Part shown: piece after piece, positions 1 to 20,335 of the stretch
How the letters are laid out: each line of letters starts with the position of its first letter
Position numbering within the stretch: position 1 is the first letter of the stretch
NCBI GenBank assembly: GCA_017302815.1
Contig: JAFLCQ010000003.1
Coordinates: 2,042-66,041 of the forward strand
Length of the DNA: 64,000 bases
DNA from: Planctomycetota bacterium
GTDB taxonomy: Bacteria > Planctomycetota > UBA11346
Reading direction: 5' to 3'
Program-made: the position numbers and the translations under genes
Notes under the pieces: model-generated
What the model saw: the letters and a program-made list of their open reading frames with translations, nothing else
Told to the model about the DNA's origin: nothing
Databases searched by the model: none

Positions 1-1
1 G

Positions 2-1956: not shown

Positions 1957-2093
1957 GTCAGCCTGTACCGCATGCAGACCGCTTCGGCAACCCGTGCCGG
2001 GCGCATGAACCGGCCGTCATGTGGATGTGCCTGCCGCGCCGGATGGCCCATGAGACCATCCGGCGCCGGTTGTCGCCCGTTTCACTCGGCAGT

Positions 2094-2573: not shown

Positions 2574-2817
2574 GGCTGACTCCGGGGTTGAGGTGGGTAG
2601 CGGCCACTGGTAGCGGGGGCCGTAAAACGTTGTGAACTCGGCAGTTGTCTCATCCGGAGCTACGCAATTCAGCGTGAGACAAACCCCGTCCTGATGACGT
2701 TTTCTGTCTATGCCCATCGTCGTCGGCTTCCGCTGGCCCTGACAGCGGCCGGAGACACCCCCGCGTCGTGTCGCTGGAGGCAACTGGCGCGGGGGAGTGC
2801 ATGGACACACTGCCGTC

Positions 2818-3525: not shown

Positions 3526-3533
3526 ACAGCCAT

Positions 3534-5819: not shown

Positions 5820-5948
5820 GATGGTCCTCACCCCAGCTGACGGCCCGATCGCCCGCCGATGACGGATGTCCTTGGAGGCTGTCCCTGCCATGTAGAAGGT
5901 TGGAGGAACCAGCCTGAGACGGGGCCGCTTGGGCGGTGGTTGTTCTAT

Positions 5949-6770
5949 ATGGGCCTACCGCGTCCGCTGCTGCTGCTGGCCATGGTCGCCGTCGCTACCG
6001 CCGCCGATCCCGTCAACCGGATGTGCCCGGTCCTGCCGGATGAGCCCGTCGATCCAGCCTTCCAGACCGCTTGGAATGGGCAGGTCGTTGGGTTGTGCTG
6101 CGCCCGCTGTGTTCGCCAGTTTACCGCCAACCCTCTACAATATATCGTGAAGCCTGCCACTCCAGTGGCAGCGACCCTGCCCGCGCCGACATCCAGCGCC
6201 AACCACGCGGACCATGCCCTGGCGCAGCATGATGGTCAGGCTGCTGCGACGCCCGTCCCGGCGTCAGCCGCCGGGCACGGTGGTCACGACCATGCCACCG
6301 GCGGCCATGATCACGGAACGGGGTCCACGGCTCCCCGACTCGTCGCCTGGTTGGGTCGATTCCACCCCGTCGTCGTGCATTTCCCCATCGCCCTGAGCAT
6401 CCTGGCCGCCTTGGCCGCCGTACTGGGGCGGCTCAGGGCCAGCGAACCTTTCCGGCACACCGCCCGGATCGCGATCCATGGCGCAGCTGCGACAGCCATC
6501 CCAGCCATCCTGCTCGGCTGGTTCGCCGCCGCCGCCACGCCCCATCCGGGGCTGGACGCGGTACTCGCCTGGCATCGCTGGTTGGGCACGGCGGCTGGAG
6601 CAGGCTTGATCGCGGTGGCCGTCTGCACCGAACTGGCGCACCGGCAGATAGACCGCTCGCCGTGGGCCTGGCTGGTCGTCATCGGCAGCACCCTGATGGC
6701 CCTGGTGGTCGGTGTCGTGGGCCACCTCGGTGGCATCCTGATCTTCGGCCCGGACCACTTCACGTGGTAG
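5949..6770 (+). CDS. Membrane protein: N-terminal YHS/TRASH-like Cys domain, His-rich linker, DUF2231-like membrane domain
   Basis: MGLPRPLLLLAMVAVATAA signal/anchor, then CPVLPDEPVD...VGLCCARCVRQFTANP, a His-rich linker (GHGGHDHATGGHDHG), then HPVVVHFPIAL and several TM helices. Start at ATG 5949. Confidence 0.65.
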   Translation: MGLPRPLLLLAMVAVATAADPVNRMCPVLPDEPVDPAFQTAWNGQVVGLCCARCVRQFTANPLQYIVKPATPVAATLPAPTSSANHADHALAQHDGQAAATPVPASAAGHGGHDHATGGHDHGTGSTAPRLVAWLGRFHPVVVHFPIALSILAALAAVLGRLRASEPFRHTARIAIHGAAATAIPAILLGWFAAAATPHPGLDAVLAWHRWLGTAAGAGLIAVAVCTELAHRQIDRSPWAWLVVIGSTLMALVVGVVGHLGGILIFGPDHFTW

Positions 6771-6861
6771 GTGGGTCCGAATACCCTGAGACAGATGTGC
6801 GAAGCCGGACGTTCCCTTGTGAACCCTGGTTCGCCACGAACCGCCATCCCCGGAGTCTGCC

Positions 6862-7149
6862 ATGCGTCCCACCGCCCTCGTCCTTGGCCTAACGGCTACC
6901 CTCACCCTCATCGCCGCCGGCTGCTCTGACCGCAGCGCCGCCGCCGGTCCCAAGCCCTACCCGCTGAACACCTGCCCGATCACCGGGGAGAAGCTCGGTT
7001 CGATGGGCGAACCCATCACCGTCATCAAGGACGGTTACGAAGTGAAGTTCTGCTGCCAGGAGTGCGTCGACAAGTTCACCAAGCACCCGTCCAAGGTCAT
7101 GGACAAGGTGAAATCGGCGCACGAGCCCACCCCGCACATGGGCGGCTGA
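6862..7149 (+). CDS. Lipoprotein with YHS/TRASH-like metal-binding domain
   Basis: Lipobox LIAAGC, then CPITGEKL...YEVKFCCQECVDKFTKHP. Paralogue of 17715-18050 and of domains in 5949-6770 and 15600-16073. Confidence 0.7.
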   Translation: MRPTALVLGLTATLTLIAAGCSDRSAAAGPKPYPLNTCPITGEKLGSMGEPITVIKDGYEVKFCCQECVDKFTKHPSKVMDKVKSAHEPTPHMGG

Positions 7150-7301
7150 TCCGCGCAACCGCTCAGCATCGACCGCTCGATACGGGGAGAAGCCATGGTC
7201 ATCCTTCTACGGTTATCGCTCCACCGCCAATGCAGTCCGTCATGATCGGCAGCGATAGCCGTCTGCACCAATAGGCCACGTATCACCGGCCTGGAGCACC
7301 C

Positions 7302-7523
7302 ATGCATACCACCACCCTGACGATCACCGGCATGTCCTGCGGTAGTTGCCGCAACCATGTCGACGCCGCCCTGCGCGCCGTCGCCGGCGTCACCCAGGTG
7401 CACGTCGATCTCGCCGCCGGCTCGGTTCGCATCAGCCACGAGGACGGCGTCATGCCGGCCGACCTCATCCTCGCGGTCGAGGACGCCGGATATGACGCGC
7501 ACCTGCCCGGACCGACGCCATGA
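7302..7523 (+). CDS. copZ: Heavy-metal-associated (HMA) copper chaperone
   Basis: 73 aa with LTITGMSCGSCRNHV (MxCxxC) and the ferredoxin-like HMA pattern. Its stop overlaps the next start (ATGA at 7520-7523). Confidence 0.85.
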   Translation: MHTTTLTITGMSCGSCRNHVDAALRAVAGVTQVHVDLAAGSVRISHEDGVMPADLILAVEDAGYDAHLPGPTP

Positions 7524-8086
7524 CCACGCCGGCGCAACGCGAAGCCCAAGCTGGGTTGCTGGCTGATCTGGGCCGTTTCAGGGCTTTCATCCGCCGCCGG
7601 GTGGCCGATCCGCACACCGCCGACGACATCCTCCAGGATGCCCTGCTGCGGGCCACCCGGCACCTCGACCAGCTCCAGGACACCGAGCGGATCGATGCCT
7701 GGTTCTACCGCATCATCCGCCATGCGATCGGTGATCGAGCGGGGTCGCGGCCGATGCAGGCGCTGGATCTCGAACCGGCAGCATTCGCTGCCGATCAAGC
7801 CGAGGTGTGCCGCTGCCTGTTTCCGCTCATCGGCCGTCTTCCCCCGGACCAGGCCGAGGCGATCCGCGTCATCGATCTGGCGGATGGCGATCCGGCATTG
7901 CTGGCACGCAACGCCGGGGTGGAGATCAACACCATCCATGCACGACGGTCGCGGGCCCGCTCGGGCCTACGCGATCTGCTGCAGCAGGCCTGCCGCGCCT
8001 GCGCCACCCACGGTTGTCAGGATTGCGACTGCGCACCATCGCCAGACGGGGTGCGGCGACCCACGCCGTCGGCAGGGGTTCAATGA
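7520..8086 (+). CDS. ECF sigma factor with Cys-rich C-terminal extension (CorE-like)
   Basis: Region 2 (ADDILQDALLRATRHL, WFYRIIRHAI) and region 4 (LPPDQAEAIRVIDLADGDPALLARNAGVEINTIHARRSRAR), plus an internal CRC and a C-terminal CRACATHGCQDCDC. Translationally coupled to copZ. Confidence 0.75.
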   Translation: MTTPAQREAQAGLLADLGRFRAFIRRRVADPHTADDILQDALLRATRHLDQLQDTERIDAWFYRIIRHAIGDRAGSRPMQALDLEPAAFAADQAEVCRCLFPLIGRLPPDQAEAIRVIDLADGDPALLARNAGVEINTIHARRSRARSGLRDLLQQACRACATHGCQDCDCAPSPDGVRRPTPSAGVQ

Positions 8087-10302
8087 TGCCGATGCCCCTG
8101 CCCGTCCGGCGCGACCGGACCCAGGTCAGGTGCGACGTCTGGGATGCGTAGCCCAGCCAGCACCAGGGCATCGACCGTCCGCTCCATGGGATGCCCGACG
8201 CGGTGCTGCAGGTGGTATTGGAGATGCGCCGCCCCGATGCGATCGACCACCGCCTGCGCATCGGCGCGGTGGCCGGCGCGCGCCAGGGTGACGGCCTGCA
8301 GCGCCTGCAACTCGGTATGGTCGGGGTTGATGCGCAATCCGCGCCCGACCGCCCGGGACAGGTCGGTGGCATCGCCGCGCGCCAGGGCTTCATAGGCCAG
8401 GATCAGTGGCGGATACATGCTGTCGGGCTCGGCACCGCTGGCGACCAGCCCCAGGTGCTGGGCGCTGTGCAGATCCCGCTGCGCCAACGCCGCCCGGGCG
8501 GCGGCGATCAGGGGCCAGAAGTCACCGGGCCGATCCTGCAGCACTTCCCAGGCCCGTGCATCGATGGCTGCCGCCGGGGCGAAGGCGGCCATGACGGCGC
8601 CGGCGCTCTCCGGCTCGGCCAGCGCCGCCGCCGCATCCACGCCTGCCGGAAGCGCCGGATCGTGGGCCTGGAAGCGGCTGACGGCGCAGACGCGCCCCAG
8701 CGCCCGCCATCCCGGTGTCGGTCCGCCGCTGGCGAGGGCCTGGGCTGCACGAGCGGCCTCGACCGATTGGTTCCGCTCCGCCGCGGCACGCCACGCCCAG
8801 ACCAGCGCCTCAGCGATATCCACGGCCAGGGGATGATCGTGCCAGGTCGGCAGCGCGGCGGCGCTGCCCAACTCGATGCCGACGCCGGCCAGTGCGCTCT
8901 GCCACTCCTGGGACTCACCAGGCCATGGGCCGGTACGCCGGACATGATCAAGCAGCTGCCGGAAACGGAGACGCTGTTCGGCGAGCCGTGTCTGCTGGGC
9001 CAGCACATCGCCCGCGGCGCGCAGGCGTTCGGCGAGGGCGTGCGCCTCCGGCAGACCGGGATGGGACGCGAGCAGCGCTTCCACCTCGGCCTGGGCCACC
9101 CGCACCGCCTCGGGTCGGTTCAGGTCGACGGCGGCAGCCATGCGTTCCACCCGCTGGACAGCGGCCTGCCTGGCGTCGTGGAGATGCAGCCACCAGGCGC
9201 TACCCACCACGGCGAGGAGCAGGATGGCCGAACCGGCAGCCATGCGGACCTGCTTGGAGTGCCGAAGCCGCAACCAAGCCCGTTCAAGCCGCCCGGCCTC
9301 CTGGGCGACCGTGATGCCCTCATCAAGCCAGCGCCGGAGTTCGGCCACGATCGCACCTGCATCGGGGTAGCGCTGGGTTGGCTCGGACAGGCAGCGCCGT
9401 ACCACAGCAGCAAGGCCTCGTGGGACGTTCCGGTCCTGCAACCGGTCGAGTTCGAGCAACCCCGGCCGGCCAGGATCGGGACGCGGTCCCTGGCCAGTCA
9501 GCACCAGGTGCAGCAGGGCGCCAAGGGCGAAGACGTCCATCCGCGGATCGGCTGGCGCCCCCATGGCCTGCTCGGGAGCCATCCAGGCCGGGGTGCCGAC
9601 CCGGACGCCATCACCCTCGCCAATCCGAGCCGCAACGCCCCAGTCGAGGACATAGACGGCACCGAAATCCGCAACCAGGATGTTGGCCGGGGTGAGATCC
9701 CGATGCACAACGCCACGACTGTGGGCGAAGGCGATGGCCTCGACAGCGCGCAAGAAGACTTCGACCAGGGCGATGGCTGGTCGTGGTTCGTCACGCAGAC
9801 GTTCATCGAGCGGACGGCCGTTCAGACGTTGCATGGTGAAGGCCGGACGCCCCTCGGCACGGCCGATGTCGTAGATCGGCGGGATGGCCGGATGCTCCAG
9901 CGATGCGGTCAGGGCGGCTTCGCGCCGGAAGGCCTGGGCGCGGAGATAGAACTGGTCCAGGCTTTCGTCGATACCACGCGGCTTGAGGACCTTCAGGGCG
10001 ACATCACGTTCGAGGGATGCGTCTGCGGCGCGCTGCACCACCGCCATACCGCCCTCGCCAATCACATCCCCGGCATGCAGACGGCTGCGGGAGGGATCGG
10101 CAACAAACCCAGGCTCAGGTGGTGCCTTCAGTGGCATATCGAGATGCACCTGCGTCATCTGGGATTCCGCGTCACCCAGGAGACGTCCAACCTCCTCGTC
10201 GGGCTGGTGCTCCAGCCACTGATCGATCGCGGCGAAACGGTCTTTGGGCAGCGAACCGCGCAGATAGGCGGCAAGCTCCGCGGGCGTGGGTGCGGGATCC
10301 AT
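8080..10302 (-). CDS. Ser/Thr protein kinase with TM segment and long helical/TPR-like C-terminal domain
   Basis: Hanks-type motifs: VALKVL, HRDLTPANILV, LDWGVA (DFG-equivalent) and GTPAWMAPEQ. A hydrophobic segment AAGSAILLLAVVGSAWWL precedes about 380 aa of Ala/Leu-rich helical repeats. It is the last gene of the cus-like operon. Confidence 0.85.
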   Translation of the reverse strand: MDPAPTPAELAAYLRGSLPKDRFAAIDQWLEHQPDEEVGRLLGDAESQMTQVHLDMPLKAPPEPGFVADPSRSRLHAGDVIGEGGMAVVQRAADASLERDVALKVLKPRGIDESLDQFYLRAQAFRREAALTASLEHPAIPPIYDIGRAEGRPAFTMQRLNGRPLDERLRDEPRPAIALVEVFLRAVEAIAFAHSRGVVHRDLTPANILVADFGAVYVLDWGVAARIGEGDGVRVGTPAWMAPEQAMGAPADPRMDVFALGALLHLVLTGQGPRPDPGRPGLLELDRLQDRNVPRGLAAVVRRCLSEPTQRYPDAGAIVAELRRWLDEGITVAQEAGRLERAWLRLRHSKQVRMAAGSAILLLAVVGSAWWLHLHDARQAAVQRVERMAAAVDLNRPEAVRVAQAEVEALLASHPGLPEAHALAERLRAAGDVLAQQTRLAEQRLRFRQLLDHVRRTGPWPGESQEWQSALAGVGIELGSAAALPTWHDHPLAVDIAEALVWAWRAAAERNQSVEAARAAQALASGGPTPGWRALGRVCAVSRFQAHDPALPAGVDAAAALAEPESAGAVMAAFAPAAAIDARAWEVLQDRPGDFWPLIAAARAALAQRDLHSAQHLGLVASGAEPDSMYPPLILAYEALARGDATDLSRAVGRGLRINPDHTELQALQAVTLARAGHRADAQAVVDRIGAAHLQYHLQHRVGHPMERTVDALVLAGLRIPDVAPDLGPVAPDGQGHRHH

Positions 10303-10305
10303 GGG

Positions 10306-10491
10306 CTAGGCGGATACAGGCGCATCGTCGATGCGATGCGGATCGGCGCTGGGAACCACCGCATCAGCCGCCGTCACGGGTGGCGGCACGGATGGCCGAC
10401 CCTCCATGATCGTGCGCAGCCGTTCAGCCAGTGCGAGCGCCGCAGCCGCCGCATCGGGATCCAGCGGATCAGGGACTTGCGGCGTGATCAT
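10306..10491 (-). CDS. Small Pro/Ala/Asp-rich hypothetical protein
   Basis: 61-aa ORF that exactly fills the gap between the cusA stop (10495) and the kinase start (10302), with 3-nt spacers on both sides. No recognisable motif. Confidence 0.35.
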   Translation of the reverse strand: MITPQVPDPLDPDAAAAALALAERLRTIMEGRPSVPPPVTAADAVVPSADPHRIDDAPVSA

Positions 10492-10494
10492 GCC

Positions 10495-13400
10495 CTATGT
10501 CCCGGCTGGACCCGCATCTGGCACAGGCGTTGGTGCCGGTGGTGCCACCAATGCCGCCTGACGCTGCAGCTTCCGCTCCCACCACCAGGCGTAGAAGACC
10601 GGGACGCTGAACAGGCTGATGTAGTCGGCGAGCATGCCGCCGATCACCGGCAGGACCATCGGACGCATCAGTTCGGCGCCGCGGCCGTCGCTCCACAGGA
10701 TGGGGATCAGCGCCAGCAGGGTGGTGCAGTTGGTCATGATGGCCGGACGGCGACGCCGCAGGCCGGCCTGGAAGACGCGCTGGTGGACATCGGGGATGGT
10801 CGTCGGCGCGGTCTTGAACAGATCGTGGAGGTAGGTGCCCAGCAGGATGCCATCATTGAACATGACGCCCAGCAGCACCAGGAAGCCGACGATCACCGCC
10901 GTGGTCATCTCCGCGCCGTAGAGGTAGACGGCGATGAAGCCGCCCGCCGTCGTGACGGTGACGTTGCAGGTGATGATGATCGAGGTGGTCAGCAGCGAGC
11001 GGGTGCCCCAGAGGATCAGCACCAGCATCACGCCCATCGCCATGCCGATCACCCAGGTCATGGTCTGGTCGGCCTTCATCTTCTGCTCGAAGCGTCCGAC
11101 CCAGCGATAGGTCGCACCGGCCGGCAGGGTCAGTTCGCCCCGCTTGATCGCCTCCTGGAGCATGCGGTCGGCCTCGCGCACGACCTCGACCTCGGCACGG
11201 CCGCGGGCGTTGAGCAGGACGTACTGCGTGCGCTTGCCGCCCTCGCTGCGGATCGCCATCGGGCCGATCGTCCAGGTGACGGCGTTGGGGTCGTCGCGCT
11301 TGGCGGTCACCGTCACCTGACCCGGTGGCGGCGCGGCCACGCCCGGTGCCAGGACCGTCAGCGGATCGACGATGCCGGCTGGCAGCGGATCGCCTGCCGG
11401 GATGGTCAGCTCGGCCAGGGTTGGCGAGAGCGGCGTCAGGTTGCGTCCGATGGTCAGCGACTGGCTCTTCCGCCACGCCTCGGGAGTGATGCCATCGAAG
11501 CGCAGGGTGTAGACGGTCGGCGAGGCGGTGAGTAGGTTCAGGGCGATGGCGCCGTGTCCGGCCGCGACCGGCACCTGGAGCTGGGCGAACTCGTCGGCGT
11601 CATCGCGACGCTCGCGCGGGTAGCGGATGCGCACGTTGTAGCGGAGCGTGCCTTCGACGGAGGCGATGATCGGCATGCCGCCCAGGGCGGATTCGACGGT
11701 GGTGAGGAGCTGCTCGGCGGTGATGCCGAAGCGCGCCATCTTGCGCTCATCCAGGCGGATCTCGGCGTAGGGCTTGCCCCCCTCGCGCTGCATCTGCACA
11801 TCGGCCGCGCCGGGGACGCGCTGGACGACCTTTTCGGCCTGCTCCGCGAAGTTCTCCAGGGCCGCCTGATCATCGCCGAGGATCTGCAGGGCCATGAGCG
11901 AGCGGATGCCGGTCGACAACATGACGACGCGGGTCTCGATCGGCTGCAGCCAGCTCGGCGCGACGCCGGGGATGTCGCTGGCGGCGCCCAGGGCCTGGCG
12001 CACCTCGGCCAACGTCCGTGGACGGGTCTGGGTGGTGCCGTCGGGCAGGGTGATCTCGTGCACCGGCCATTCGTGGTAGGGCTTGAGCAGCACCACGGTC
12101 TCGATCATGCCGATCGGCGCCGGATCGAGGGCGGTCTCGGCCCGCCCCATCTTGCCCATCAGCGCCGCCACCTCGGGCACCGAGGCGATGGCCTTGTTCT
12201 GCTGCATCATCACCCGCTGGGTCTCGCCCAGGCCGGCGGTGGCCGGGACCGAGGGCATGAACAGCAGCGAACCCTCGTCGAGGGGCGGGAGGAAGCTGGC
12301 GCCGATACCGGGGAAGGCGCGACGCATGGCGGCGTCGAAGCGGGTCTGCGTGATGTCGGCGCCGACCAGGGCCAGGCCCTGGCGCAACGGCCAGCTCACC
12401 GTCGACCAGCCGGTTCCCAGCATCCAGCCGAAGAGCGCGACCGAGGCGATGGTCAGGGTGAAGGCGACCTTGTGGCGCAGCATGCGGGTCAGCGCCCAGT
12501 CGTAGGCGATGGCGATGCCGTGGCTGACCGGGTTCTCCTCGTAGCTGACCAGCTCTTCGCGGCCGAGGCGCCAGACGGCGTAAGCGGCGAGCATGGCGCC
12601 CAGCGGCGCGGCGATGAGGCCCGGCAGGACCACGGCCCAGCGGCCATGGTCGAGCGGGATGCGCAGGCCCTCGGGCAGCAGGATCATGAACACGATGCCG
12701 GCGAGCAGGCCGGCGAACGCGAGGATCACCGGCTTGCGCGTCTGCCACGGCGGCAGCAGCAACCGGCACAGCACCGGGACGAGCAGCATGCCGAAGATGA
12801 CGGCGGCGCCGATGGCCAGGGTCTTGGTCGCGGCCAACGGCTTGAACAGGCGGCCGGCCTGGTCGTCGAGGAGGAAGATCGGAATGAAGCTGATGATCGT
12901 GGTCGCCGCAGCGGTCAGCAGGGCGCGGGACACCTCGCTGGTGCCGGCGATGACGGCGTCGACGACCTCGGGATCCATCGGCGAGCTGGGCGGTGGCTTG
13001 CCTTCGCGATGCCGCCGCTCCTTGAGCATGACGAGATGCTGGGTGACGTTCTCGCACACCACGATGCCGAAGTCGACCATCACGCCGATGGCGATGGCGA
13101 TGCCGGCCAGGCTCATGATGTTGGCCGACATGCCGAACAGGCGCATGGCCAGGAAGGTCGACAGCACGCCCAGCGGCAGGGCCAACGCGACGGTCAGGCT
13201 GGCCCGGGCATGGAGCATGAAGATGACGATGACCAGGCAGGTGACGATGAGCTCCTCGATGAGCACACGGGCCAGGGTCTGGTTGGTCTCCAGGATGAGT
13301 TGCGACCGGTCGTAGAACGGCACGGCGACCAGTTCGTCCTTGGCGAGCGTCGGCGACAGGTCGTTCAGGCGCTGCTTGACCGCCCCGATGACCGTCTTGG

Positions 13401-14268
13401 GGTCCTCGCCGACGCGCATGGCGACGACCGCGCCGACCTGTTCGCCGGATTGATCGGCGAGCAGCCCCTGGCGGACCGCTCCACCCAGATGGACCTCGGC
13501 TATGTCGCCCAGCAGCAGGCCGGCGCTCTGCTTCGCGTTGCCCTGGATGACGATGTTCTCGACATCGGCGACCGAGCGGATGAAGCCGCGTCCGCGGATC
13601 ATCGTCTCAATGCCGGACTGCTCGATCGACATGGCGCCGACATCGCGGCCGGCCGCCTTCACCGCGTCCATCAGCATCATGGTGGTGATGCCCTGCTCCT
13701 CCAGGCGGGTCGGATCGATGTCGATCTGGTACTCGCGCACCACGCCGCCGGCCGGAGCCACCTCGGACACGCCACGCACGCCTTGCAGGGCGGGGACGAC
13801 CACCTGATCGAGGATGAAGCGTTTGCGCTCGACGTCGCTCGGACCTTGGAGGGTGAAGGCGAAGACCTGTCCCATCGCCGTCGCGTCAGGTCCGAGCTTG
13901 GCCTGGACCCCGGCAGGGAGCAGTCCCTGGATCTGCGACAGCCGCTCCAGCGTGCGGGTCCGGCAGTCGTAGAGGTTGCGGTCCTCGTCGAAGATGACGT
14001 AGACGTAGCTGGTCCCGAACAGGGACATGCCGCGCACGACCTTGACGCCGGGCAGGCCCTGGAGTTCGCGGGCCAGCCGGCGGGTCACCTGCTCATCGAT
14101 ATCCTCAGGCGATTTCCCGGGCCACTCGGCCCAGACGATGACCTGGTTGTCGGAGAGGTCGGGGATGGCGTCGACCGGCACTTTGGTCCACGCCCAGAGG
14201 CCAGCCACGCCCAAGGCGATGGTGATGGCCAGCGTAACCAGCCAGTTGCGGATGAACCAGGCGATCAT
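10495..14268 (-). CDS. cusA: Heavy-metal efflux RND pump (CusA/CzcA family), unusually long
   Basis: The N-terminus MIAWFIRNWLV...VPVDAIPDLSDNQVIVWAEWPGKSPEDIDEQVT..YVYVIFDEDRNLY..LPAGVQAKLGPDATAMGQVF parallels E. coli CusA closely. 1257 aa versus about 1050 typical; extra segments are visible in the second periplasmic loop and mid-protein. Confidence 0.85.
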   Translation of the reverse strand: MIAWFIRNWLVTLAITIALGVAGLWAWTKVPVDAIPDLSDNQVIVWAEWPGKSPEDIDEQVTRRLARELQGLPGVKVVRGMSLFGTSYVYVIFDEDRNLYDCRTRTLERLSQIQGLLPAGVQAKLGPDATAMGQVFAFTLQGPSDVERKRFILDQVVVPALQGVRGVSEVAPAGGVVREYQIDIDPTRLEEQGITTMMLMDAVKAAGRDVGAMSIEQSGIETMIRGRGFIRSVADVENIVIQGNAKQSAGLLLGDIAEVHLGGAVRQGLLADQSGEQVGAVVAMRVGEDPKTVIGAVKQRLNDLSPTLAKDELVAVPFYDRSQLILETNQTLARVLIEELIVTCLVIVIFMLHARASLTVALALPLGVLSTFLAMRLFGMSANIMSLAGIAIAIGVMVDFGIVVCENVTQHLVMLKERRHREGKPPPSSPMDPEVVDAVIAGTSEVSRALLTAAATTIISFIPIFLLDDQAGRLFKPLAATKTLAIGAAVIFGMLLVPVLCRLLLPPWQTRKPVILAFAGLLAGIVFMILLPEGLRIPLDHGRWAVVLPGLIAAPLGAMLAAYAVWRLGREELVSYEENPVSHGIAIAYDWALTRMLRHKVAFTLTIASVALFGWMLGTGWSTVSWPLRQGLALVGADITQTRFDAAMRRAFPGIGASFLPPLDEGSLLFMPSVPATAGLGETQRVMMQQNKAIASVPEVAALMGKMGRAETALDPAPIGMIETVVLLKPYHEWPVHEITLPDGTTQTRPRTLAEVRQALGAASDIPGVAPSWLQPIETRVVMLSTGIRSLMALQILGDDQAALENFAEQAEKVVQRVPGAADVQMQREGGKPYAEIRLDERKMARFGITAEQLLTTVESALGGMPIIASVEGTLRYNVRIRYPRERRDDADEFAQLQVPVAAGHGAIALNLLTASPTVYTLRFDGITPEAWRKSQSLTIGRNLTPLSPTLAELTIPAGDPLPAGIVDPLTVLAPGVAAPPPGQVTVTAKRDDPNAVTWTIGPMAIRSEGGKRTQYVLLNARGRAEVEVVREADRMLQEAIKRGELTLPAGATYRWVGRFEQKMKADQTMTWVIGMAMGVMLVLILWGTRSLLTTSIIITCNVTVTTAGGFIAVYLYGAEMTTAVIVGFLVLLGVMFNDGILLGTYLHDLFKTAPTTIPDVHQRVFQAGLRRRRPAIMTNCTTLLALIPILWSDGRGAELMRPMVLPVIGGMLADYISLFSVPVFYAWWWERKLQRQAALVAPPAPTPVPDAGPAGT

Positions 14269-14274
14269 GGCGGC

Positions 14275-15603
14275 TCAGTGCTGGTGTGCGGGTGCGGTGT
14301 TCACCGACCCGTCGGGGAACAGGAGCGAGGCCGAGCCGGCGAGCTGGGCCTGGCTGTCGATGAGGAAGAGCGCCTGGGTGGCGACCTCATCACCAGGCTG
14401 CAGTCCGGCACGGATGACGTAGCGGTCGTTGCCCGCCTCATCCTCCAGCCGGGGTCCCAGGGCGACGGTCACCGGCTCGAACTGCACCGAGCCATCGGTC
14501 TTGCGGCTCTTCACCCGCCACGCGATGTGGCGGACACCGGTCGAGAGGATGGCGGTCTTGGGCACCTGCGGGAAGGTCCCCCAGGTCGACTGGTCGGTGG
14601 GATCAGCCGGCGTCAGATCGGCTCCGAGCACCGCCTGGATGCGGGCGTTGAGCAGCGAGCCGGGGAGGATGCGTTTGCGGCCATCGGCCAGGTGGATGCG
14701 CACTTCGCGGGCCCGGATCTCGGGATTCAGCTCGTTGGCCACGCGGCCGACCACGGCCTCGATCTCGGGCAGTTCGCCCATGTCATCGCTCGACAAGCGC
14801 ACCCGCTGGCCGGCGCGCAGGAAATGGACGCGCGGCTCGGGTACATGGAACACCAGGGTCAGGCGATGCGGATCGACCAGCTTGATCAGCGGCATGTCGG
14901 CCTGCACCTCGCCGCCGACCATGAGCGTCTTGTTGACCATGTCCTGGTCATCGAGGTAGGCCTGACCTGCGGCCGGGCTGTAGATCGTCACCGTATCGGT
15001 CGGGGGCTTGCCGGCCTTGATCGCCTCCGCGACATGGCGCAGGTTCCAGCGCACGAAGCGTTCCTCGATGGCGGCGGCCAGGTCGGCGTTGCCGGAGCGG
15101 ATCGCGGCGGCCAACTCGCCCTGCGCCTGGTAGGCCTCCGGGCTGTAGAGATCGATGATCGGATCGCCGAGCAGGACCTCCTGGCAGCAGCCGAAAGTCG
15201 CATCATGGCGCTTGACGATGCGCCCTCCGATGCGGCTGATCACGACCTGGGAGAAGCGTTCGTCGTACTCGGCGGCGCCGTAGGCGCGGACGACGACGCT
15301 CGCCGGACCAGCCGTGACTGTCGCCGTCTTGGTGCCCATGCGGCGCTGCTGTTCGCGAGTGAGGTCACCAGCCGTGACCCGCTCCATCTTCATGCCGCAC
15401 ACCGGACAGCTGCCCGGCTTGTGGCCGATGAAGTCCATCATCGGGCAGGCCCAGCGTTCGCCGGTCGGCGCATCGGCATCGGTCCGGTCGTGCGGGACAA
15501 AGAAGGTGCCCGACGGGATGGCGACGATCAGAACCGAGCCGACGGCGAGACCAGCCGCAGCGCTCATCCATCCATTCCACGATCGCAAGATAGGCATGGT
15601 CAC
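14275..15603 (-). CDS. cusB: RND periplasmic adaptor (CusB-like) with N-terminal Cys metal-binding motif
   Basis: N-terminal anchor, then CPMMDFIGHKPGSCPVCGMKMERV (heavy-metal-binding-domain pattern), followed by membrane-fusion-protein architecture. Directly upstream of cusA. Confidence 0.8.
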   Translation of the reverse strand: MTMPILRSWNGWMSAAAGLAVGSVLIVAIPSGTFFVPHDRTDADAPTGERWACPMMDFIGHKPGSCPVCGMKMERVTAGDLTREQQRRMGTKTATVTAGPASVVVRAYGAAEYDERFSQVVISRIGGRIVKRHDATFGCCQEVLLGDPIIDLYSPEAYQAQGELAAAIRSGNADLAAAIEERFVRWNLRHVAEAIKAGKPPTDTVTIYSPAAGQAYLDDQDMVNKTLMVGGEVQADMPLIKLVDPHRLTLVFHVPEPRVHFLRAGQRVRLSSDDMGELPEIEAVVGRVANELNPEIRAREVRIHLADGRKRILPGSLLNARIQAVLGADLTPADPTDQSTWGTFPQVPKTAILSTGVRHIAWRVKSRKTDGSVQFEPVTVALGPRLEDEAGNDRYVIRAGLQPGDEVATQALFLIDSQAQLAGSASLLFPDGSVNTAPAHQH

Positions 15604-16073
15604 TCCTCGACGACCTGGTTCTTGAGCGCGGCCGGACCATAGCGTTCGGGCTCGGCGGCGAACTTGGGTGGGCAGGCCTTGCAGCCGAATCCGATGGTCT
15701 TGCCCTGGAAGGTGGCAGTCGGCAGCTTGGGGTTCACCGGCATGCCGCAGATGGCGCAGATGGTATTGACCGGCACACCGGCAGCAGGCGCGGCCGGCAT
15801 GGCATGCCCGGCATGGGGATCAGCCGCCGGTGCGGCGGCCGGCGTAGCCGGAGCCGGACTGCCATGGCCGGCATGCGGATCTGGTGCCGCCGGTGCCGTT
15901 GGTGGCGTGGCAGCCCCCGTATGCCCGGCATGCGGATCGACGGTGCTCGCCGGAGCGACCGTATGCGATCCCTGGTGGCCCTCGTAGGCGTTGTGGCGGA
16001 CCGTGCGGATGGCGGCCGTCACGACGGCGCCGATCAGGAAGCAGGCGGCGAAGATGATGAGATGGCGGGTCAT
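15600..16073 (-). CDS. Membrane-anchored His-rich protein with 3x DPHAGH and C-terminal YHS/TRASH-like domain
   Basis: N-terminal TM helix (LIIFAACFLIGAVVTAAI), three DPHAGH motifs in a Pro/Ala linker, then ICAICGMPVNPKL...GKTIGFGCKACPPKFAAEP. 4-nt overlaps with both neighbours. Confidence 0.7.
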   Translation of the reverse strand: MTRHLIIFAACFLIGAVVTAAIRTVRHNAYEGHQGSHTVAPASTVDPHAGHTGAATPPTAPAAPDPHAGHGSPAPATPAAAPAADPHAGHAMPAAPAAGVPVNTICAICGMPVNPKLPTATFQGKTIGFGCKACPPKFAAEPERYGPAALKNQVVEE

Positions 16074-17380
16074 GGGGTGGTCGCCGGGGGCTGGTGGTGG
16101 TCGGTCGTCTGGTCGCCGTCATCGGCAACGGCTGTGGTCGGCAGGTCGGGTGGAGCGAGTCGCCAGAGTTCGGCCAAGGCCATCTGGCTGTCGAGCCGGG
16201 CCATGACCGCGTTCATGCCGGACTCGGTGATCATGTCGAGCAGGTTGAGCGAGGCTGTCACCGTGGCGCCGCCACTGCCGACCTGCTGGATGACCGCATC
16301 GTACTCCGTGCGGGTCCGGGCGGCGATGTCGTCGGCCGTCCGCTGCGCCTGCTGGGCTTGGGCGATGGCCCGCTGGGCGCGACTGACCTGGCTGCGCGCC
16401 ATCCAGGTCGCACCGCTGGCCTCATGGCGTGCGGCGCGAGCCCGGGTACGGGCGGCGTCGGCGGCACCGCCATAGGCTGAACGGTAGATCGGCAGCGACA
16501 TGCGGAAGGTGAGCGCGACCTTGTCGGTCTGCTCATCGGTTCCGGCTGCCTCGCGCTCCCAGGCCAGGCCGACCGCCGTCTCGGGATTGCCGCGTGCCTC
16601 GGCCTCGCGCTCCATGGCCTGGGCTTCCTGCTGCATGGCGGCAGCCGTCCGGGCCATCGGGTTGGCCTCGACCCGGATGGTGGCCGGGTCAGGGGCAGCA
16701 AACGGCGGCACGGGTGCATCGGGGCGCAGACCGAGGCGCCCGCGGACCATGGCCAGGGCATCCGCCTGGCGGCGCTCCAGGTCCGCCAGTTGCAGGTCAA
16801 GCTGCTGAGCCTTGGTATCGAGAGCCAACTGATCGCCGATCATCGCACCACCAGCGGCGATGCGGGCACGGACGACCTCGCGCAACGCCGTGATGCGTTC
16901 GCGCGACTGGCGGACCAGGACCTGGGTGTCGCGTGCGGCCATCCACTCCGCGACCCCCGTCGCCACCTCGGCGGCGTGCTCGCCGATCACAGCCGCGACG
17001 CTGGCGGCTTCGAGGCTGACCTGGGCCCGGGCGGTCTGGCGCATGGCATCGCGCTCGCCCCAACGCGGCAGGGCCTGCTCGATCATCGCCCCGTACATGG
17101 TCATCTCCTCACCCATGCGCGTCCGTTCGCGGCCGATGTCGCCGCCGACCATGGGGTCCGGCAGGACGCCGGCCGCAACTTGCGCCTGCTCGGCTCCGGC
17201 AACCCTGGCCCGGGCTGCTGCAATGGCCGGAGCCCGGGCCAGGGCGGCACGGAACTGCAGCAGCGCCGACGCCGGATCCTCGCCGGCTGCCGGTGCGGGG
17301 GCTGGCGCGGTCGGAGCCGGCACCTCGGCGGCGATGCCGAGCATCGTGCTGACGACCGCGAGAAGGATGATGCGTCGCAT
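16070..17380 (-). CDS. Outer-membrane efflux protein (TolC/CusC family)
   Basis: 436 aa with signal peptide MRRIILLAVVSTMLGIAA and Ala/Gln/Arg-rich coiled-coil-like repeats typical of OEPs. First large gene of the RND tripartite set. Confidence 0.65.
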   Translation of the reverse strand: MRRIILLAVVSTMLGIAAEVPAPTAPAPAPAAGEDPASALLQFRAALARAPAIAAARARVAGAEQAQVAAGVLPDPMVGGDIGRERTRMGEEMTMYGAMIEQALPRWGERDAMRQTARAQVSLEAASVAAVIGEHAAEVATGVAEWMAARDTQVLVRQSRERITALREVVRARIAAGGAMIGDQLALDTKAQQLDLQLADLERRQADALAMVRGRLGLRPDAPVPPFAAPDPATIRVEANPMARTAAAMQQEAQAMEREAEARGNPETAVGLAWEREAAGTDEQTDKVALTFRMSLPIYRSAYGGAADAARTRARAARHEASGATWMARSQVSRAQRAIAQAQQAQRTADDIAARTRTEYDAVIQQVGSGGATVTASLNLLDMITESGMNAVMARLDSQMALAELWRLAPPDLPTTAVADDGDQTTDHHQPPATTP

Positions 17381-17520
17381 AGGGTGGCTTTCGGCGGAAG
17401 GCCCGGCAGCAGGCGCTGCAAGGCGCGGCCAAGGACTGCCGAACGGAAACGGCAGAGCCCAGGTAGTTTACACGATTGGCCTGATCACCGCAAGACGCGG
17501 CAATCAGGCCGTACATGGAT

Positions 17521-17700
17521 TCAGTGGCTATGACCGCTGTGGCCACCGTGGCCGCTGCCATGCGATCCCGCACCGGAGCTCCGGTCAGAGCAGCCAGCCA
17601 CGGCCAGGATCCCGATCGTCAGAACCACGGCGACCAGCATGATGATGGTGCGCACCGATGGGCCACGGCGCTGGGAGGTTGCAGAGGAGCAGCAGTCCAT
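17521..17700 (-). CDS. Mini-lipoprotein with His-rich tail (below ORF-track size cutoff as an independent gene)
   Basis: MDCCSSATSQRRGPSVRTIIMLVAVVLTIGILAVAGCSDRSSGAGSHGSGHGGHSGHSH. It has a charged n-region, a hydrophobic core and a lipobox VAGC. The predicted mature part is 23 aa containing 6 His. It sits 15 nt after the stop of the upstream gene. Confidence 0.55.
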   Translation of the reverse strand: MDCCSSATSQRRGPSVRTIIMLVAVVLTIGILAVAGCSDRSSGAGSHGSGHGGHSGHSH

Positions 17701-17714
17701 GGAGGCCTCGCGCG

Positions 17715-18050
17715 TCAGTGCTGGTGGTTGCCGTGGCCGGCGGCGGGAGCGGGAGCGGGAGCAGCTGGAGCCGCATCTGCCTTGGCGGGCGCGTCGGTGA
17801 TCTTTTTCAGGTACTTGGCCGGTTCTTTCTCGAAGGACTTGATGCAGCCCTTGCAGCAGAACTTCACCTCTTGGCCATCCTTGACCACGGTGACGGTGCC
17901 GCCCATCGCATCGAGCTTCTCGTTGCTGACGATGCAGGTGTCGAAGGGGTAGGCCTTGGCCTTGGGGGCATCGGCTGCGGGGGTGTCGGCACCCCACGCG
18001 GCGGCGGCGAGGAGCGAGGCGATGGTGGTCGTCAGGAGCATACGGGGCAT
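17715..18050 (-). CDS. Secreted YHS/TRASH-like metal-binding protein with His-rich C-terminus
   Basis: Signal peptide MPRMLLTTTIASLLAAAAWG, then CIVSNEKL...QEVKFCCKGCIKSFEKEP and a tail ...AAGHGNHQH. Paralogue of 6862-7149. First gene of the minus-strand operon. Confidence 0.7.
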   Translation of the reverse strand: MPRMLLTTTIASLLAAAAWGADTPAADAPKAKAYPFDTCIVSNEKLDAMGGTVTVVKDGQEVKFCCKGCIKSFEKEPAKYLKKITDAPAKADAAPAAPAPAPAAGHGNHQH

Positions 18051-18454
18051 GGTGGAGATCCTTGGGGGTACACTCTATAATGTCGCCCCGATGTCGCCTG
18101 TTCCACGTCGGTTGAAGAACCCCTGGCGAATCGAGAGGCATGCATCGCGCAGTTTATTGCCAGAACAGAAGTTATGATCCGCAGCGTGGGTGTGGACGCT
18201 TCGCCGCCAGCGAGCCGTTCCCCACACATTCGGGCATGGCGTCATCGGTTGGAGGCGGACCCAGGCCTCACCTCCATGGGGAACAGGTCGTCGAGCCAGG
18301 CGGTCGGCTTGGAAACATGGATAACGTCACCAACAGGCTTCGTGTCTCAGGCTGCATCGCCCAACATATGGCGAGACAACCCACATGGCCTTGACGTATT
18401 CTTCATGAAAGGCGGCCCTCCACCCTCCGCCTCACCCTGACTAAGGAGCCCGCC

Positions 18455-18886
18455 ATGCGCCTCTCGCTCATCACCACCCTGATCCTCCTCGCTGCCAGCG
18501 TCTTCGCCGCCGATACGGCCACGAACACCGCCAAGCCCTGGTACATCGGCCCCAAGGGCGGCGACGTCCGCAAGGGGCACACAACCTCGCCCCGTGAACT
18601 CTGGGTGGCCATCCACGGCACCGATGCGGTGCCGGCCACTGCCGCCGCGGCGTCCCCGAAGCCCTGGTACATCGGCCCCAAGGGCGGCGATGTCCGCAAG
18701 GGGTACGCGCCCTCGCCCCGTGAACTCTGGGTGGCCGTCCACGGCACCGATGCCGCGTCGGCTGCTGCCGTCGCGGCGACCCCGAAGCCCTGGTACATCG
18801 GCCCCAAGGGCGGTGACACCCGCAAGGGGCACACGCCCTCACCCAGTGAACTCTGGGTTGCTGTCCATGGCAAGGAAACACGTTGA
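18455..18886 (+). CDS. Secreted repeat protein, PWYIGPKGGD-repeat family (3 tandem 42-aa repeats)
   Basis: Signal peptide MRLSLITTLILLAASVFA, then three units KPWYIGPKGGD(V/T)RKG...SP(R/S)ELWVA(I/V)HG. RBS-like aaggag lies 7 nt upstream of the ATG. Confidence 0.75.
   Translation: MRLSLITTLILLAASVFAADTATNTAKPWYIGPKGGDVRKGHTTSPRELWVAIHGTDAVPATAAAASPKPWYIGPKGGDVRKGYAPSPRELWVAVHGTDAASAAAVAATPKPWYIGPKGGDTRKGHTPSPSELWVAVHGKETR
18533..18886 (+). repeat. Tandem 126-bp coding repeat, about 2.8 copies
   Basis: aagccctggtacatcggccccaagggcgg recurs at 18533, 18659 and 18785, a period of 126 nt (42 codons). Confidence 0.9.
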
Positions 18887-18901
18887 ACACTTGGGACCAA
18901 G

Positions 18902-18936
18902 CCATCCGGTCACTCCTCCTGCAGGCGACCGGATGG
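18902..18936 (+). terminator. Stem-loop downstream of 18455-18886
   Basis: ccatccggtc (18902-18911) pairs with gaccggatgg (18927-18936) around a 15-nt loop. Only a weak T tract follows. Confidence 0.4.
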
Positions 18937-18955
18937 TTGCGCGCCGCAATCCGCA

Positions 18956-19183
18956 CTATCTGACATTCATAAAACGGGATCCATACCCGACCTTGGCGTT
19001 CTTGTGCCGAATCAATCGCTGGGCCAACAGCGCTCCAGGCCAACCGCCGAGGAGTTCGAGGACATGGAGCGTGGCCTCGGGCGTCCGTGGTCGATCGAGT
19101 CGGGCAGCGCGCTTGTCGAGGTAGTAGGCCAGGAAGGCGATCAGGCTCATCAAGCCGTAGACGGCGGCGATGATCTGGATCAC
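18956..19183 (-). CDS. DUF1294-like small membrane protein
   Basis: N-terminal TM helix, then YLDKRAARLDRPRTPEATLHVLELLGGWPGALLAQRLIRHKNAK, which matches the DK..A....RIPE..L....LGG..GA......HK pattern of DUF1294. The left copy of the 15-bp direct repeat lies inside it. Confidence 0.6.
   Translation of the reverse strand: MIQIIAAVYGLMSLIAFLAYYLDKRAARLDRPRTPEATLHVLELLGGWPGALLAQRLIRHKNAKVGYGSRFMNVR
19062..19076 (+). repeat. Left copy of 15-bp direct repeat (candidate att core)
   Basis: acatggagcgtggcc, identical to 43034-43048. Flanking sequence is unrelated on both sides. Confidence 0.55.
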
Positions 19184-19386
19184 CGCCTGCCGCCGGCGGT
19201 AGTGTGCGCCCAGTCTTCAACCCAACCGCGCATCTGACCCCGAAACGTGATCGGCACATCGGTTTGAGCGACCCAGAGGCGCAGTTGTGATTCGGAGATG
19301 CCGCGAAACTGCATGGCAGCGATGAAGTCGGGATTAGCCACGGCTTTGGCCAGGAGATCCTGAGAGCGGCCTGACCAGCGCATCAT
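19180..19386 (-). CDS. Small HTH protein (IS3 OrfA / transposase-HTH-like or excisionase-like)
   Basis: MMRWSGRSQDLLAKAVANPDFIAAMQFRGISESQLRLWVAQ resembles the ..GISESTLRNWV.. HTH of IS3-family OrfA proteins. The track ORF extends to 19509 and the start is uncertain. 4-nt overlap with the DUF1294 gene. Confidence 0.35.
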   Translation of the reverse strand: MMRWSGRSQDLLAKAVANPDFIAAMQFRGISESQLRLWVAQTDVPITFRGQMRGWVEDWAHTTAGGRR

Positions 19387-19495
19387 GTTGGGGCGGGGCA
19401 CGGGTATGAGCGTAGAAGAAGGCCAGTCGCCAACAAGGTGGGGCGATTTAACCCACCGCGCCCACCTTGCGACGGGCGCGGTGCGTATTGCCATC

Positions 19496-19747
19496 CTAAC
19501 GATTTGCAAACTGTTCGACGTCGTCGATGTCCAGGGTGAAGGCGTAGGTGTTGAGTCCGGCGACGACGAAGCCCGAACTCTCTTCGAGGATCATGTAACC
19601 GCCAAACTCAGCCGCGAGTTCGGTGCGGTTCACCGACTTGCGGAGCGTGAAACCACGACGATGCAGGCGACGGCGGAGGTTGGCTTCCTTCTTAGCCCGC
19701 TCAGTGGGTGTTAGGGTGGTAAAGGTTGGGTCCATGGAAGGATCCAT
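19496..19747 (-). CDS. Hypothetical small protein
   Basis: 83-aa ORF with a basic N-terminal half (KKEANLRRRLHRRGFTLRKS) and GGYMILEESSGFVVAG..TLDIDDVEQF. No function recognised. Confidence 0.45.
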   Translation of the reverse strand: MDPSMDPTFTTLTPTERAKKEANLRRRLHRRGFTLRKSVNRTELAAEFGGYMILEESSGFVVAGLNTYAFTLDIDDVEQFANR

Positions 19748-19915
19748 ATTGGAAACCCGTCCAAGCCCTCGATTAATCGGAGACTTGGATGGGAGGTTGA
19801 AGTCCTACTAGGCATTCCCATTTGATCGGGAACGCCATGCAGGCGTTATTGGTCAGACCGTCTCAGTATCCGGAGCCGGATCGGAAAACGGCAGTTCAGT
19901 TCGGATGGAGATACC

Positions 19916-20335
19916 CTAGTTGCTTAGTTCGATCCGTTTGACGTCATTGATGTTGCCCACGATGCAGGTCTTCAACTGGTCCAGCGACCGGACGACGACG
20001 CCCGCTCGCAGCCAGATGATGCTTCCTGCGGGAATCTCAGTGCCCACCGGCAGCACGATCGCCCCACAGCCGGCGACGACTCCCGCATCCATGGCGAAGT
20101 CGTGGACCCAAACTGGTCCAATGATCGAGCAGGAGATCCACGACGCGCCAGTGATTGCCGGGGATCCAGCAGCGAGCGAAGCCTCGATGGCCTTCTGATT
20201 ATCCCAGATTTCGTCGATCGAGATGTAGAGGTCGAGATTCGACAGGAGTTGCTGGATGTGGTCATCCGCGATCGGTTCTGCGTCGTAGAGTCGGGCGACG
20301 ATCGTGTTGATCGATTTCTGTGAAGTGGAAGACAT
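19916..20335 (-). CDS. Hypothetical protein (lower-GC cargo gene)
   Basis: 139-aa ORF with protein-like composition and visibly lower GC than its surroundings. No motif recognised. Confidence 0.5.
   Translation of the reverse strand: MSSTSQKSINTIVARLYDAEPIADDHIQQLLSNLDLYISIDEIWDNQKAIEASLAAGSPAITGASWISCSIIGPVWVHDFAMDAGVVAGCGAIVLPVGTEIPAGSIIWLRAGVVVRSLDQLKTCIVGNINDVKRIELSN

Follow-up and report, generated by a model that had tools for sequence, protein, structure and literature searches.

Two small genes that encode exported repeat proteins bracket a copper-efflux gene cluster in a 64,000-nucleotide stretch of DNA from an uncultured member of the Planctomycetota (assembly GCA_017302815.1, contig JAFLCQ010000003.1, positions 2,042 to 66,041; hereafter, the window). 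The genes, termed A and B, specify repeats built around the peptide PWYIGPKGGD, and the question raised by this locus is what role such proteins have at the edges of a copper island. An initial annotation did not recognize the motif as a known domain. It suggested a periplasmic or surface role linked to metal stress, and it ascribed the nucleotide-level identity of the repeat cores to recent gene conversion or to selection acting on the DNA or RNA itself.

Our analysis, on balance, somewhat favors the following answer. A and B are paralogues from a rare family of Sec-exported, net basic and disordered proteins; they belong to a copper regulon driven by a sigma factor, and they act as multivalent periplasmic docking or buffering accessories of metal efflux. 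We are much more confident of regulon membership and export than of this statement as a whole. The scaffold mechanism itself is tentative and, taken separately, rather doubtful.

Two exported repeat proteins

The genes under study and their repeats are as follows.

Positions 18455-18886, plus strand: gene A, an exported repeat protein of 143 amino acids, with a signal peptide at amino acids 1-18 (MRLSLITTLILLAASVFA) followed by three 42-amino-acid units
Positions 18509-18634, 18635-18760 and 18761-18886, plus strand: the tandem units of gene A, 126 nucleotides each (repeat family D1)
Positions 2094-2573, minus strand: gene B, an exported paralogue of 159 amino acids, whose leader (MRLAIIPTLILLASTVAA) is related to that of gene A
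Positions 2175-2201, minus strand: the degenerate third motif of gene B, APAVGPKGG

Both proteins open with MR and a hydrophobic stretch of 15 residues, followed by a V-x-A site of the cleavage type, and were judged by eye to carry signal peptides. A GGAG-type ribosome-binding site lies 7 nucleotides ahead of the ATG in each gene. The homologous leaders described in the initial annotation are related Sec-type leaders, which support the export part of the role proposed there. The open reading frame (ORF) of gene A, 18395-18886, has a G+C content at third codon positions of 0.82, as do long ORFs of the window.

Each unit of gene A consists of KPWYIGPKGGDxRKG and then the linker H..SPxELWxAxHG; units 2 and 3 are 84% and 74% identical in nucleotide sequence to unit 1. 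The product of gene B has a different order: the leader, an N-terminal CC pair, two full units spaced by 123 nucleotides (41 amino acids), the degenerate third motif and a C-terminal CxxxC helix, with five Cys in the protein. The annotated repeats of 41 to 42 amino acids are present as three units in A and as two plus a degenerate third in B. Two architectures predominate in the family: type A (three motifs, with H-x2-SP-x-ELW-x-A-x-HG linkers) and type B, in which Cys pairs accompany two motifs, a third that is degenerate and a CxxxC helix. The genes lie, as first described, at the outer edges of the metal cluster (2797-18050) and point outward.

Promoters and sigma factor of the island

Alignment of the DNA upstream of type A genes and of type B genes in several genomes revealed a conserved, asymmetric unit of 26 nucleotides, GAGACA-N15-ACGT(T/A). 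We take it to have the AAC...CGT look of promoters used by extracytoplasmic function (ECF) sigma factors. The window holds five exact copies, where 0.01 are expected. In the 4.28-Mb assembly only these same five occur, all inside the island, and a reversed control pattern gives none. A relaxed pattern yields background outside the island genome-wide (14 matches, versus 11 in the control).

Positions 18373-18398, plus strand: ECF-type promoter of gene A (ACGTA variant), ending 56 nucleotides before the ATG
Positions 18323-18348, minus strand: divergent partner promoter, facing the YHS-OEP-CusB-CusA operon
Positions 2626-2651, minus strand: ECF-type promoter of gene B, ending 52 nucleotides before the ATG
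Positions 2676-2701, plus strand: divergent partner promoter, facing the gene for a 242-amino-acid sigma-like protein (2797-3525)
Positions 6788-6813, plus strand: fifth copy, the only unpaired one, 48 nucleotides before an operon for a YHS lipoprotein, a CopZ-like HMA protein and an ECF sigma factor

Contigs or loci of relatives are labeled L below, and proteins of relatives P. The motif lies roughly 40 to 65 nucleotides before the ATG of family genes at eight of these loci (L001, L002, L003, L006, L007, L011, L012 and L014), and its -35 part reads GAGACA, GGGACA or GAAACA in relatives. No sigma-70-type promoter was found upstream of gene A or gene B. An interpretation of the paired element, AACGT..TGTCTC..GAGACA..ACGTT, as an RNA hairpin or a dimeric, palindromic operator was rejected, because a single unit stands at 6788-6813, because the spacing of the halves varies and because each half is about 50 nucleotides before a start codon. 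The distance between divergent partners is 24 nucleotides in the window, about 13 at L014 and about 190 at L007, and this variation favors independent promoters.

Directly after the -10-like ACGT(T/A) of gene A, at 18399-18425, there is a palindromic TTCTTCATGAA(A/G)AG segment. It recurs in upstream regions at L001 and L003, is conserved in type A genes and in relatives' type B genes, and is missing from gene B of the window. The segment could be a start-site region or an extra operator.

The operon behind the unpaired promoter encodes the following protein.

Positions 7520-8086, plus strand: CorE/SigZ-type ECF sigma factor (ECF44/ECF238-like)

Its best NCBIfam match is SigZ. The linker between sigma2 and sigma4 contains a CRC motif (...AEVCRCLFP...), and the protein ends in an extension, CRACATHGCQDCDC, whose Cys-rich stretch reads ...QQACRACATHGCQDCDC... 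and has the pattern C-x2-C-x4-C-x2-C-x-C. The CRC motif and the Cys tail are kept in orthologues with 79%, 77% and 42% identity, which reside in islands that hold the repeat family (L003, L001 and L004). No anti-sigma domain was detected beside the sigma factor, whose neighbors are the CopZ-like HMA protein and a Ser/Thr kinase. CorE-like sigma factors of groups ECF44 and ECF238 are distinguished by a CxC linker motif and by a Cys-rich C-terminal domain that senses metal without an anti-sigma factor (PMC4937300, PMC7826278). The island protein shares the CxC between sigma2 and sigma4.2, the Cys-rich extension and the lack of an adjacent anti-sigma gene; moreover, a common ECF-type promoter precedes the presumed targets and the sigma factor's own operon.

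The likely reader of the five promoters is the sigma factor at 7520-8086, and we read the copy at 6788-6813 as autoregulation. We also read genes A and B as dedicated members of this putative metal-sensing regulon, because the promoter motif is restricted to the island, because one copy precedes the sigma operon and because the motif recurs upstream of relatives.

A rare family associated with copper genes

A word-index search produced 43 relatives. A HMMER profile search of 1.84 billion protein representatives gave only 32 matches; three of these (P0049, with 1022 amino acids, P0056 and P0057) were set aside, having the look of unrelated proteins or of translated repeats. Metagenome records, 241 million in number, were scanned as well and yielded just six further loci, which bears out the rarity of the family. 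Across 185,579 species genomes, the family was found only in four metagenome-assembled genomes (MAGs), three labeled Planctomycetota and one Caulobacterales. Its distribution is patchy even among close relatives, with presence in 5 of 81 related genomes, including 3 of 7 from the genus of the window. A sixth GPKGG match, on contig C90, lies in a frame that looks non-coding and was dropped. The family is rare, with about 30 clusters, and comes from uncultured bacteria.

With the three apparent false positives excluded, members have 80 to 175 amino acids, an N-terminal hydrophobic, signal-like segment and one to three motifs. The consensus from 141 motif instances has 15 residues, [KR]-P-W-[YF]-I-G-P-K-G-G-D-[TVI]-R-[KR]-G. 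Within its G-P-K-G, both G and K are invariant and P is nearly so, and linkers vary freely. In several subfamilies the core is accompanied by added Cys clusters or His residues. AlphaFold2 gave models of low confidence that point to largely disordered proteins; the mean predicted local distance difference test score was 50.6 in type A and 49.9 in type B. Short helices appear in type A linkers. In the gene B protein, only residues 120-159 are predicted with moderate confidence. There, two bridge residues enclose a VGPKGGL turn, and the helix with the Cys residues comes after it.

The initial failure to recognize the motif is borne out by database searches. There is no significant match in Pfam (best E-values, 0.16 for KPWE_dom and 0.21) or NCBIfam (best, 0.041, over the signal peptide), no PADLOC match for the repeat proteins, and no match in a sequence profile search of the PDB at E up to 10. 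The KGG stress repeat PF10685 and the choline/cell-wall-binding repeat PF01473 are unlisted even at E up to 10, and full-text literature searches for the motif found no description.

Two loci carry tandem pairs of family genes: a type A gene and then a type B gene behind one promoter (L014, 2786-3647), and two near-identical paralogues of 112 amino acids (L017, 3670-4553).

Copper or heavy-metal genes (Cus, CopA, multicopper oxidase, YHS or DUF2231 genes) are present within 10 kb at 12 of 15 independent loci, and a YHS/TRASH homologue is present at 11 of them. In a tblastn matrix, the small YHS/TRASH protein (family of 17715-18050) is the most regular companion of the repeat family and often its divergent neighbor. 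Together with the shared, island-specific ECF promoter, this association upholds the proposed link to metal stress. Selected neighborhoods are as follows.

L001: CusA, kinase, HMA, CopA, sigma-like protein, CsoR
L002: OEP, CusB, CusA
L003: multicopper oxidase, YHS, DUF2231, CopA, sigma-like protein
L004: multicopper oxidase, DUF2231, Cus-type RND system
L005: multicopper oxidase, Csp, Fur
L007: OEP, DUF2231, YHS
L017: S41 protease, two tandem family genes, OEP, CusB

The bracketing arrangement recurs in a MAG of the same genus, where one contig has a type A gene at about 14.6 to 15.0 kb and a type B gene at 31.5 to 31.9 kb.

Proposed function

According to the mechanism that we propose, metal sensed by the sigma factor at 7520-8086 would cause the five promoters to fire together. 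Both repeat proteins would then be co-produced with the YHS-CusCBA efflux operon, the operon for the YHS lipoprotein, CopZ-like protein and sigma factor, and the second sigma-like gene, and the repeat proteins would be exported to the periplasm. Recognition of a conserved partner or ligand is suggested because an invariant short motif is repeated in a disordered, exported protein. At this point the proposal becomes a guess of low confidence: each core might form a small aromatic and basic beta-turn or hairpin, and the protein might display several such motifs that dock a conserved periplasmic partner. The best candidate for this partner would be the YHS/TRASH copper protein that co-occurs with the family, or else a TRASH domain of the Cus and DUF2231 proteins. 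Cys clusters in type B, or His pairs in type A linkers, would add copper handling. Overall, the proteins would assist the efflux response in an accessory role, by scaffolding or buffering, rather than act as a classical Met/His metal sponge.

Several points weigh against this proposal. Transcription start sites and the pairing of sigma factor with promoter are ones that we infer, and the actual reader of the motif could be a repressor or the other sigma-like protein (2797-3525). The conserved core has no classical copper ligand and some members are almost devoid of His, Cys and Met, so a direct metal role is uncertain. YHS/TRASH proteins are the best candidate partners by co-occurrence alone. 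No metal genes are found in the DNA available at three loci: L006, with restriction-modification and recombinase genes; L037, with ABC transporter and rhodanese genes; and L015, where the family gene lies at a contig end. Finally, all members come from MAGs or metagenomes, and such assemblies can be chimeric at repeats.

Alternative functions

A direct metal sponge or chaperone is unlikely, although it is the alternative that survives best. The periplasmic repeat protein, disordered when free, would bind Cu(I), Cu(II) or Ag(I) and fold on metal like SilE/PcoE or CusF, and the core would contribute Trp/Tyr cation-pi contacts, Asp/Lys and backbone amides, complemented by His or Cys of the linkers. 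The genes are placed in a copper regulon and a copper context, and disorder is predicted for their products. Type A linkers keep two His, one Glu and one Trp per unit and type B keeps four or five Cys; other subfamilies have CxxC clusters or His runs, and the variant core of P0050, PWYMHPNKSGD, has Met and His inside it. However, the invariant core contains no His, Cys or Met, and mature family members are net positive, with His at 2.7% (background, 2.3%) and Met at 0.8% (background, 2.5%). Type A and many other members lack Cys, several members have at most one His and no Cys, and no Pfam match to CusF, CopC, PcoE/SilE or HMA was obtained. Because the family is Met-poor, has His at background level and includes members without His and Cys, a sponge of the SilE/PcoE type is unlikely as its common function.

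It is improbable that A and B are multi-core precursors. Such a protein would be cut, and possibly modified by copper- or oxidase-dependent Tyr/Trp-Lys chemistry, to release copies of a peptide of 12 to 15 residues that acts as a signal, metallophore or cofactor. Cores are indeed invariant between hypervariable linkers, have basic flanks and are present in one to three copies, and the last of them ends no more than five residues from the C-terminus in 31 of 54 proteins. Multicopper oxidases are near at L003, L004 and L005, a PDZ/S41 C-terminal protease adjoins the genes at L017, and an S8 protease is found at L006. Bufferins, which are copper peptides that bear Sec signals and are made on the ribosome and modified after translation (RiPPs), offer a precedent (PMC11626156). 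However, no maturase or protease is consistently adjacent, the genome has no MNIO gene, and the only nearby radical-SAM gene encodes an activase beside an anaerobic ribonucleotide reductase. The island genes scanned include no multicopper oxidase, and trypsin-like enzymes cut poorly at a K/R-Pro bond such as the one ahead of the core. Support for a RiPP-like route is only scattered.

There is, in addition, a slim chance that the W-Y-I-G-P-K-G-G-D core is a substrate of periplasmic copper- or oxidase-dependent chemistry, such as Tyr/Trp-Lys cross-linking or quinone formation, perhaps followed by release of the units. If so, the proteins would represent a new class of multi-core peptides of ribosomal origin, with maturation outside the cytoplasm and with production switched on when needed by a copper-sensing sigma factor.

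We regard as very improbable a role as a cationic envelope binder, whose aromatic and basic hairpins would bind lipopolysaccharide, peptidoglycan or exopolymer and so shield metal sites or tether island proteins under copper stress. The composition would suit it, since K+R amounts to 11.8% versus 6.9% for D+E and the core is rich in Trp, Tyr and Gly, and the flexible, multivalent design resembles aromatic repeats that bind choline or glycans. Yet no match to CW_binding_1, LysM, SH3b or another wall-binding domain was seen at E up to 10, linkers of about 28 residues are unlike the compact arrays of such domains, and glycan genes are not a conserved context.

Nucleotide identity of the repeat cores

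The 27-nucleotide core GCCCTGGTACATCGGCCCCAAGGGCGG occurs in exactly five copies without a mismatch, as first reported (0.00 expected in shuffles). Two are on the minus strand, at 2296-2322 and 2419-2445, and three start at 18535, 18661 and 18787 on the plus strand. Two of these copies belong to a longer repeat.

Positions 2281-2322: left arm of a perfect 42-nucleotide inverted repeat, covering the core and the following DTRKG codons
Positions 18787-18828: right arm, the partner of 2281-2322

Unit 3 of A and unit 2 of B share this inverted repeat, which brackets the 16.5-kb island. Exact runs shared by A and B are 42, 31 and 27 nucleotides long in the window, but only 21 to 26 in the same-genus MAG and in the Caulobacterales-labeled MAG. 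In orthologues from other genomes, all synonymous positions of the core vary (CCC/CCG/CCA, TAC/TAT, ATC/ATT, GGC/GGT/GGA/GGG and AAG/AAA), which argues that there is no general constraint on the core at the DNA or RNA level. A search of positions 1-20000 against Rfam at permissive thresholds returned chance matches at the level of microRNAs and snoRNAs, and no RNA family. The suggestion of selection on the DNA or RNA itself is thus not supported.

Recent gene conversion, the other explanation offered initially, is plausible, and the evidence argues for it moderately. Local conversion between A and B fits because the paralogues share the perfect 42-nucleotide inverted repeat. Pro codons in this genome are 31% CCC versus 54% CCG, and all ten core Pro codons are CCC. 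With the codon usage of the window, chance identity at the seven variable codons of the core has P = 0.017 for two independent copies and P = 8.6e-4 for three. Synonymous differences between gene A units number 2/28 and 7/25; the units are young overall. Repeat-number variants are also known among relatives (P0035, P0005 and P0044). P0035 equals the gene B protein minus exactly 41 amino acids and comes from contig L036 of metagenome Ga0172380, which is also the source of contig L033, with a near-identical gene A.

The second core Pro (in G-P-K) is encoded by CCC in about 37 of 41 distinct copies from many GC-rich genomes, although CCG is used more often for Pro in the genome of the window; the copies are phylogenetically related.

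Similarity of the window to two strain-variant contigs stops at 18828-18832, just past the third core, and metagenome assemblies may break or mis-join at repeats such as these. Gene A of the variants ends in ...RKGHH or ...RKGAR, the usual family ending, whereas gene A of the window carries an extra tail, HTPSPSELWVAVHGKETR. This tail looks like the result of a rearrangement, because the variants end after the third core in the usual family fashion.

On the strain-variant contig L033 (1150-9218), gene A stops directly behind its third core. Two terminator-like hairpins come next, then genes of the zeta-toxin-like, Fic and Mrr kinds and, after these, narH, narJ and narI. The right flank of the island therefore differs between strains.

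It is scarcely credible that the nucleotide sequence is the functional unit, as a recombination site that inverts or mobilizes the island or as an RNA element with the peptide secondary: the five identical 27-mers, the inverted repeat around the island and the end of strain similarity at the third core would be expected of such a unit, but the peptide is invariant while the synonymous sites vary, which already largely refutes the idea, A/B exact runs are short in relatives, Rfam has no match, elsewhere family genes stand singly or in tandem and bracket nothing, and the repeat breakpoints may be assembly artifacts. We ascribe the identity of the cores to a peptide that does not vary, to codon bias and to a degree of local homogenization or recombination between the paralogues, not to a function at the DNA or RNA level.

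Other genes of the island

The ORFs between genes A and B were scanned with Pfam and NCBIfam, which gave the following assignments in addition to the sigma factor at 7520-8086.

Positions 2797-3525, plus strand: ECF-like sigma protein, 242 amino acids
Positions 3534-5954, minus strand: CopA P1B-ATPase
Positions 5859-6770, plus strand: DUF2231 membrane protein
Positions 6862-7149, plus strand: YHS/TRASH-like lipoprotein, first gene of the sigma operon
Positions 7302-7523, plus strand: CopZ-like HMA protein
Positions 8080-10302, minus strand: Ser/Thr kinase, 740 amino acids, at the end of the cus operon
Positions 10495-14274, minus strand: CusA
Positions 14275-15819, minus strand: CusB
Positions 15600-16073, minus strand: membrane-anchored ORF of 157 amino acids between OEP and CusB, with three DPHAGH motifs and a TRASH-like domain
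Positions 16070-17467, minus strand: outer-membrane factor (OEP)
Positions 17715-18050, minus strand: secreted YHS/TRASH protein whose tail is rich in His; its gene opens the cus operon and is the divergent neighbor of gene A

The ORF at 15600-16073 has an N-terminal membrane anchor, DPHAGH motifs encoded by 35-nucleotide repeats (15787-15938) and a C-terminal TRASH/YHS-like Cys domain. The long frame taken as CusB and the 3' end of this ORF overlap, so the true start of CusB is probably near 15600. The kinase has a single membrane segment and a long C-terminal part that is helical, and it terminates in a stretch rich in His, GQGHRHH; it may combine with the 242-amino-acid sigma-like protein into a second, kinase-linked signaling branch of the island.

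Two observations concern the left end. A 96-nucleotide piece of the sigma-like gene (2971-3066) is duplicated, with 78% identity, at 539-634, just outside the island, and may be the footprint of a rearrangement. Adjoining gene B, at 685-1956 on the minus strand, is a gene for a 423-amino-acid protein that has no Pfam match in the window. It is 90% identical to a protein with an NmeDI_C restriction-endonuclease domain on an unrelated metagenome contig (L006, 5636-6928), where the homologue is directly beside a member of the repeat family and downstream of a methyltransferase. The protein looks like part of a mobile restriction-modification module that travels with the repeat family.

Significance

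Copper islands are well studied, yet small exported proteins of unknown role remain in them. The family described here has a sharp signature, a 15-residue motif that is invariant across genomes within disordered proteins that otherwise evolve freely. Five promoters of the same type, confined to one island of the assembly, and a CorE-type sigma factor that probably senses metal directly make a clean regulatory setting, and a minimal set of sigma factor and promoter could be rebuilt in Escherichia coli as a copper-responsive switch. The biochemical role itself is a guess, and the defined peptide gives a handle for seeking a partner or a chemistry.

Comparison with known systems

The repeat family, its motif and the five-promoter, CorE-type regulon are undescribed in searchable sources. 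Their kind, a small exported accessory protein, a copper island and an ECF sigma factor, is known.

SilE and PcoE resemble the family in being small, Sec-exported, intrinsically disordered, metal-induced (as predicted here) and encoded at the edge of a copper/silver efflux island. They are Met/His-rich with HxxM/MxxH motifs, a composition that the repeat family does not have; it is Met-poor, its core has no metal ligand, and there is no sequence similarity. CusF is likewise a small periplasmic protein encoded with a CusCBA-type pump, and a Trp of the repeat core could cap a metal site as in CusF. However, CusF folds into an OB-like barrel and has a His/Met/Met/Trp site, whereas the repeat family has no such fold, Met or homology, and the operon position of CusF is occupied in the island by the YHS/TRASH protein.

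Ustiloxin precursors, with YAIG/YVIG repeats, and BURP-domain cyclopeptide precursors combine a signal peptide, several short and invariant aromatic cores, variable spacers, basic borders and copper-dependent oxidative chemistry. These systems are eukaryotic and have dedicated oxidases (UstYa/DUF3328 or BURP) and Kex2 processing; no equivalent enzyme is conserved beside the bacterial family.

Bufferins (BufA1/BufA2) share with the family a small size, a Sec signal peptide (as in A and B), a link to copper stress and frequent control by an ECF sigma factor, and some repeat-family members are Cys-rich, as bufferins are (PMC11626156). Bufferins are copper-binding RiPPs modified by MNIO enzymes, whereas many members of the repeat family lack Cys and none has an adjacent MNIO gene: MNIO (DUF692/PF05114) and DUF2063 are absent from all annotated neighborhoods of members. 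PF05114 is also absent from the whole assembly, which is 72% complete, and was scored in a control Caulobacter genome. Pfam gave no match to the Cys-containing cores of DUF2282 or BUF_6/12Cys. An identity as bufferins was rejected, given the lack of an MNIO gene in the genome and of a consistently adjacent maturase.

The closest comparison for the regulon is with CorE and CorE2 of Myxococcus xanthus (ECF44, now ECF238, which also includes Bacillus subtilis SigZ). The island differs in that its regulon would include two secreted repeat proteins and several YHS/TRASH proteins, which are not reported for CorE, and in that the C-terminal domain of its sigma factor has five Cys rather than the six of CorE and CorE2. 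Its host is an uncultured member of the Planctomycetota, for which metal specificity and promoter recognition are only predicted. In other respects the systems agree: both have a CxC linker, a Cys-rich extension and no evident anti-sigma gene, and both place a small set of metal-homeostasis genes, including an efflux system and the sigma factor's own operon, under one ECF-type promoter.

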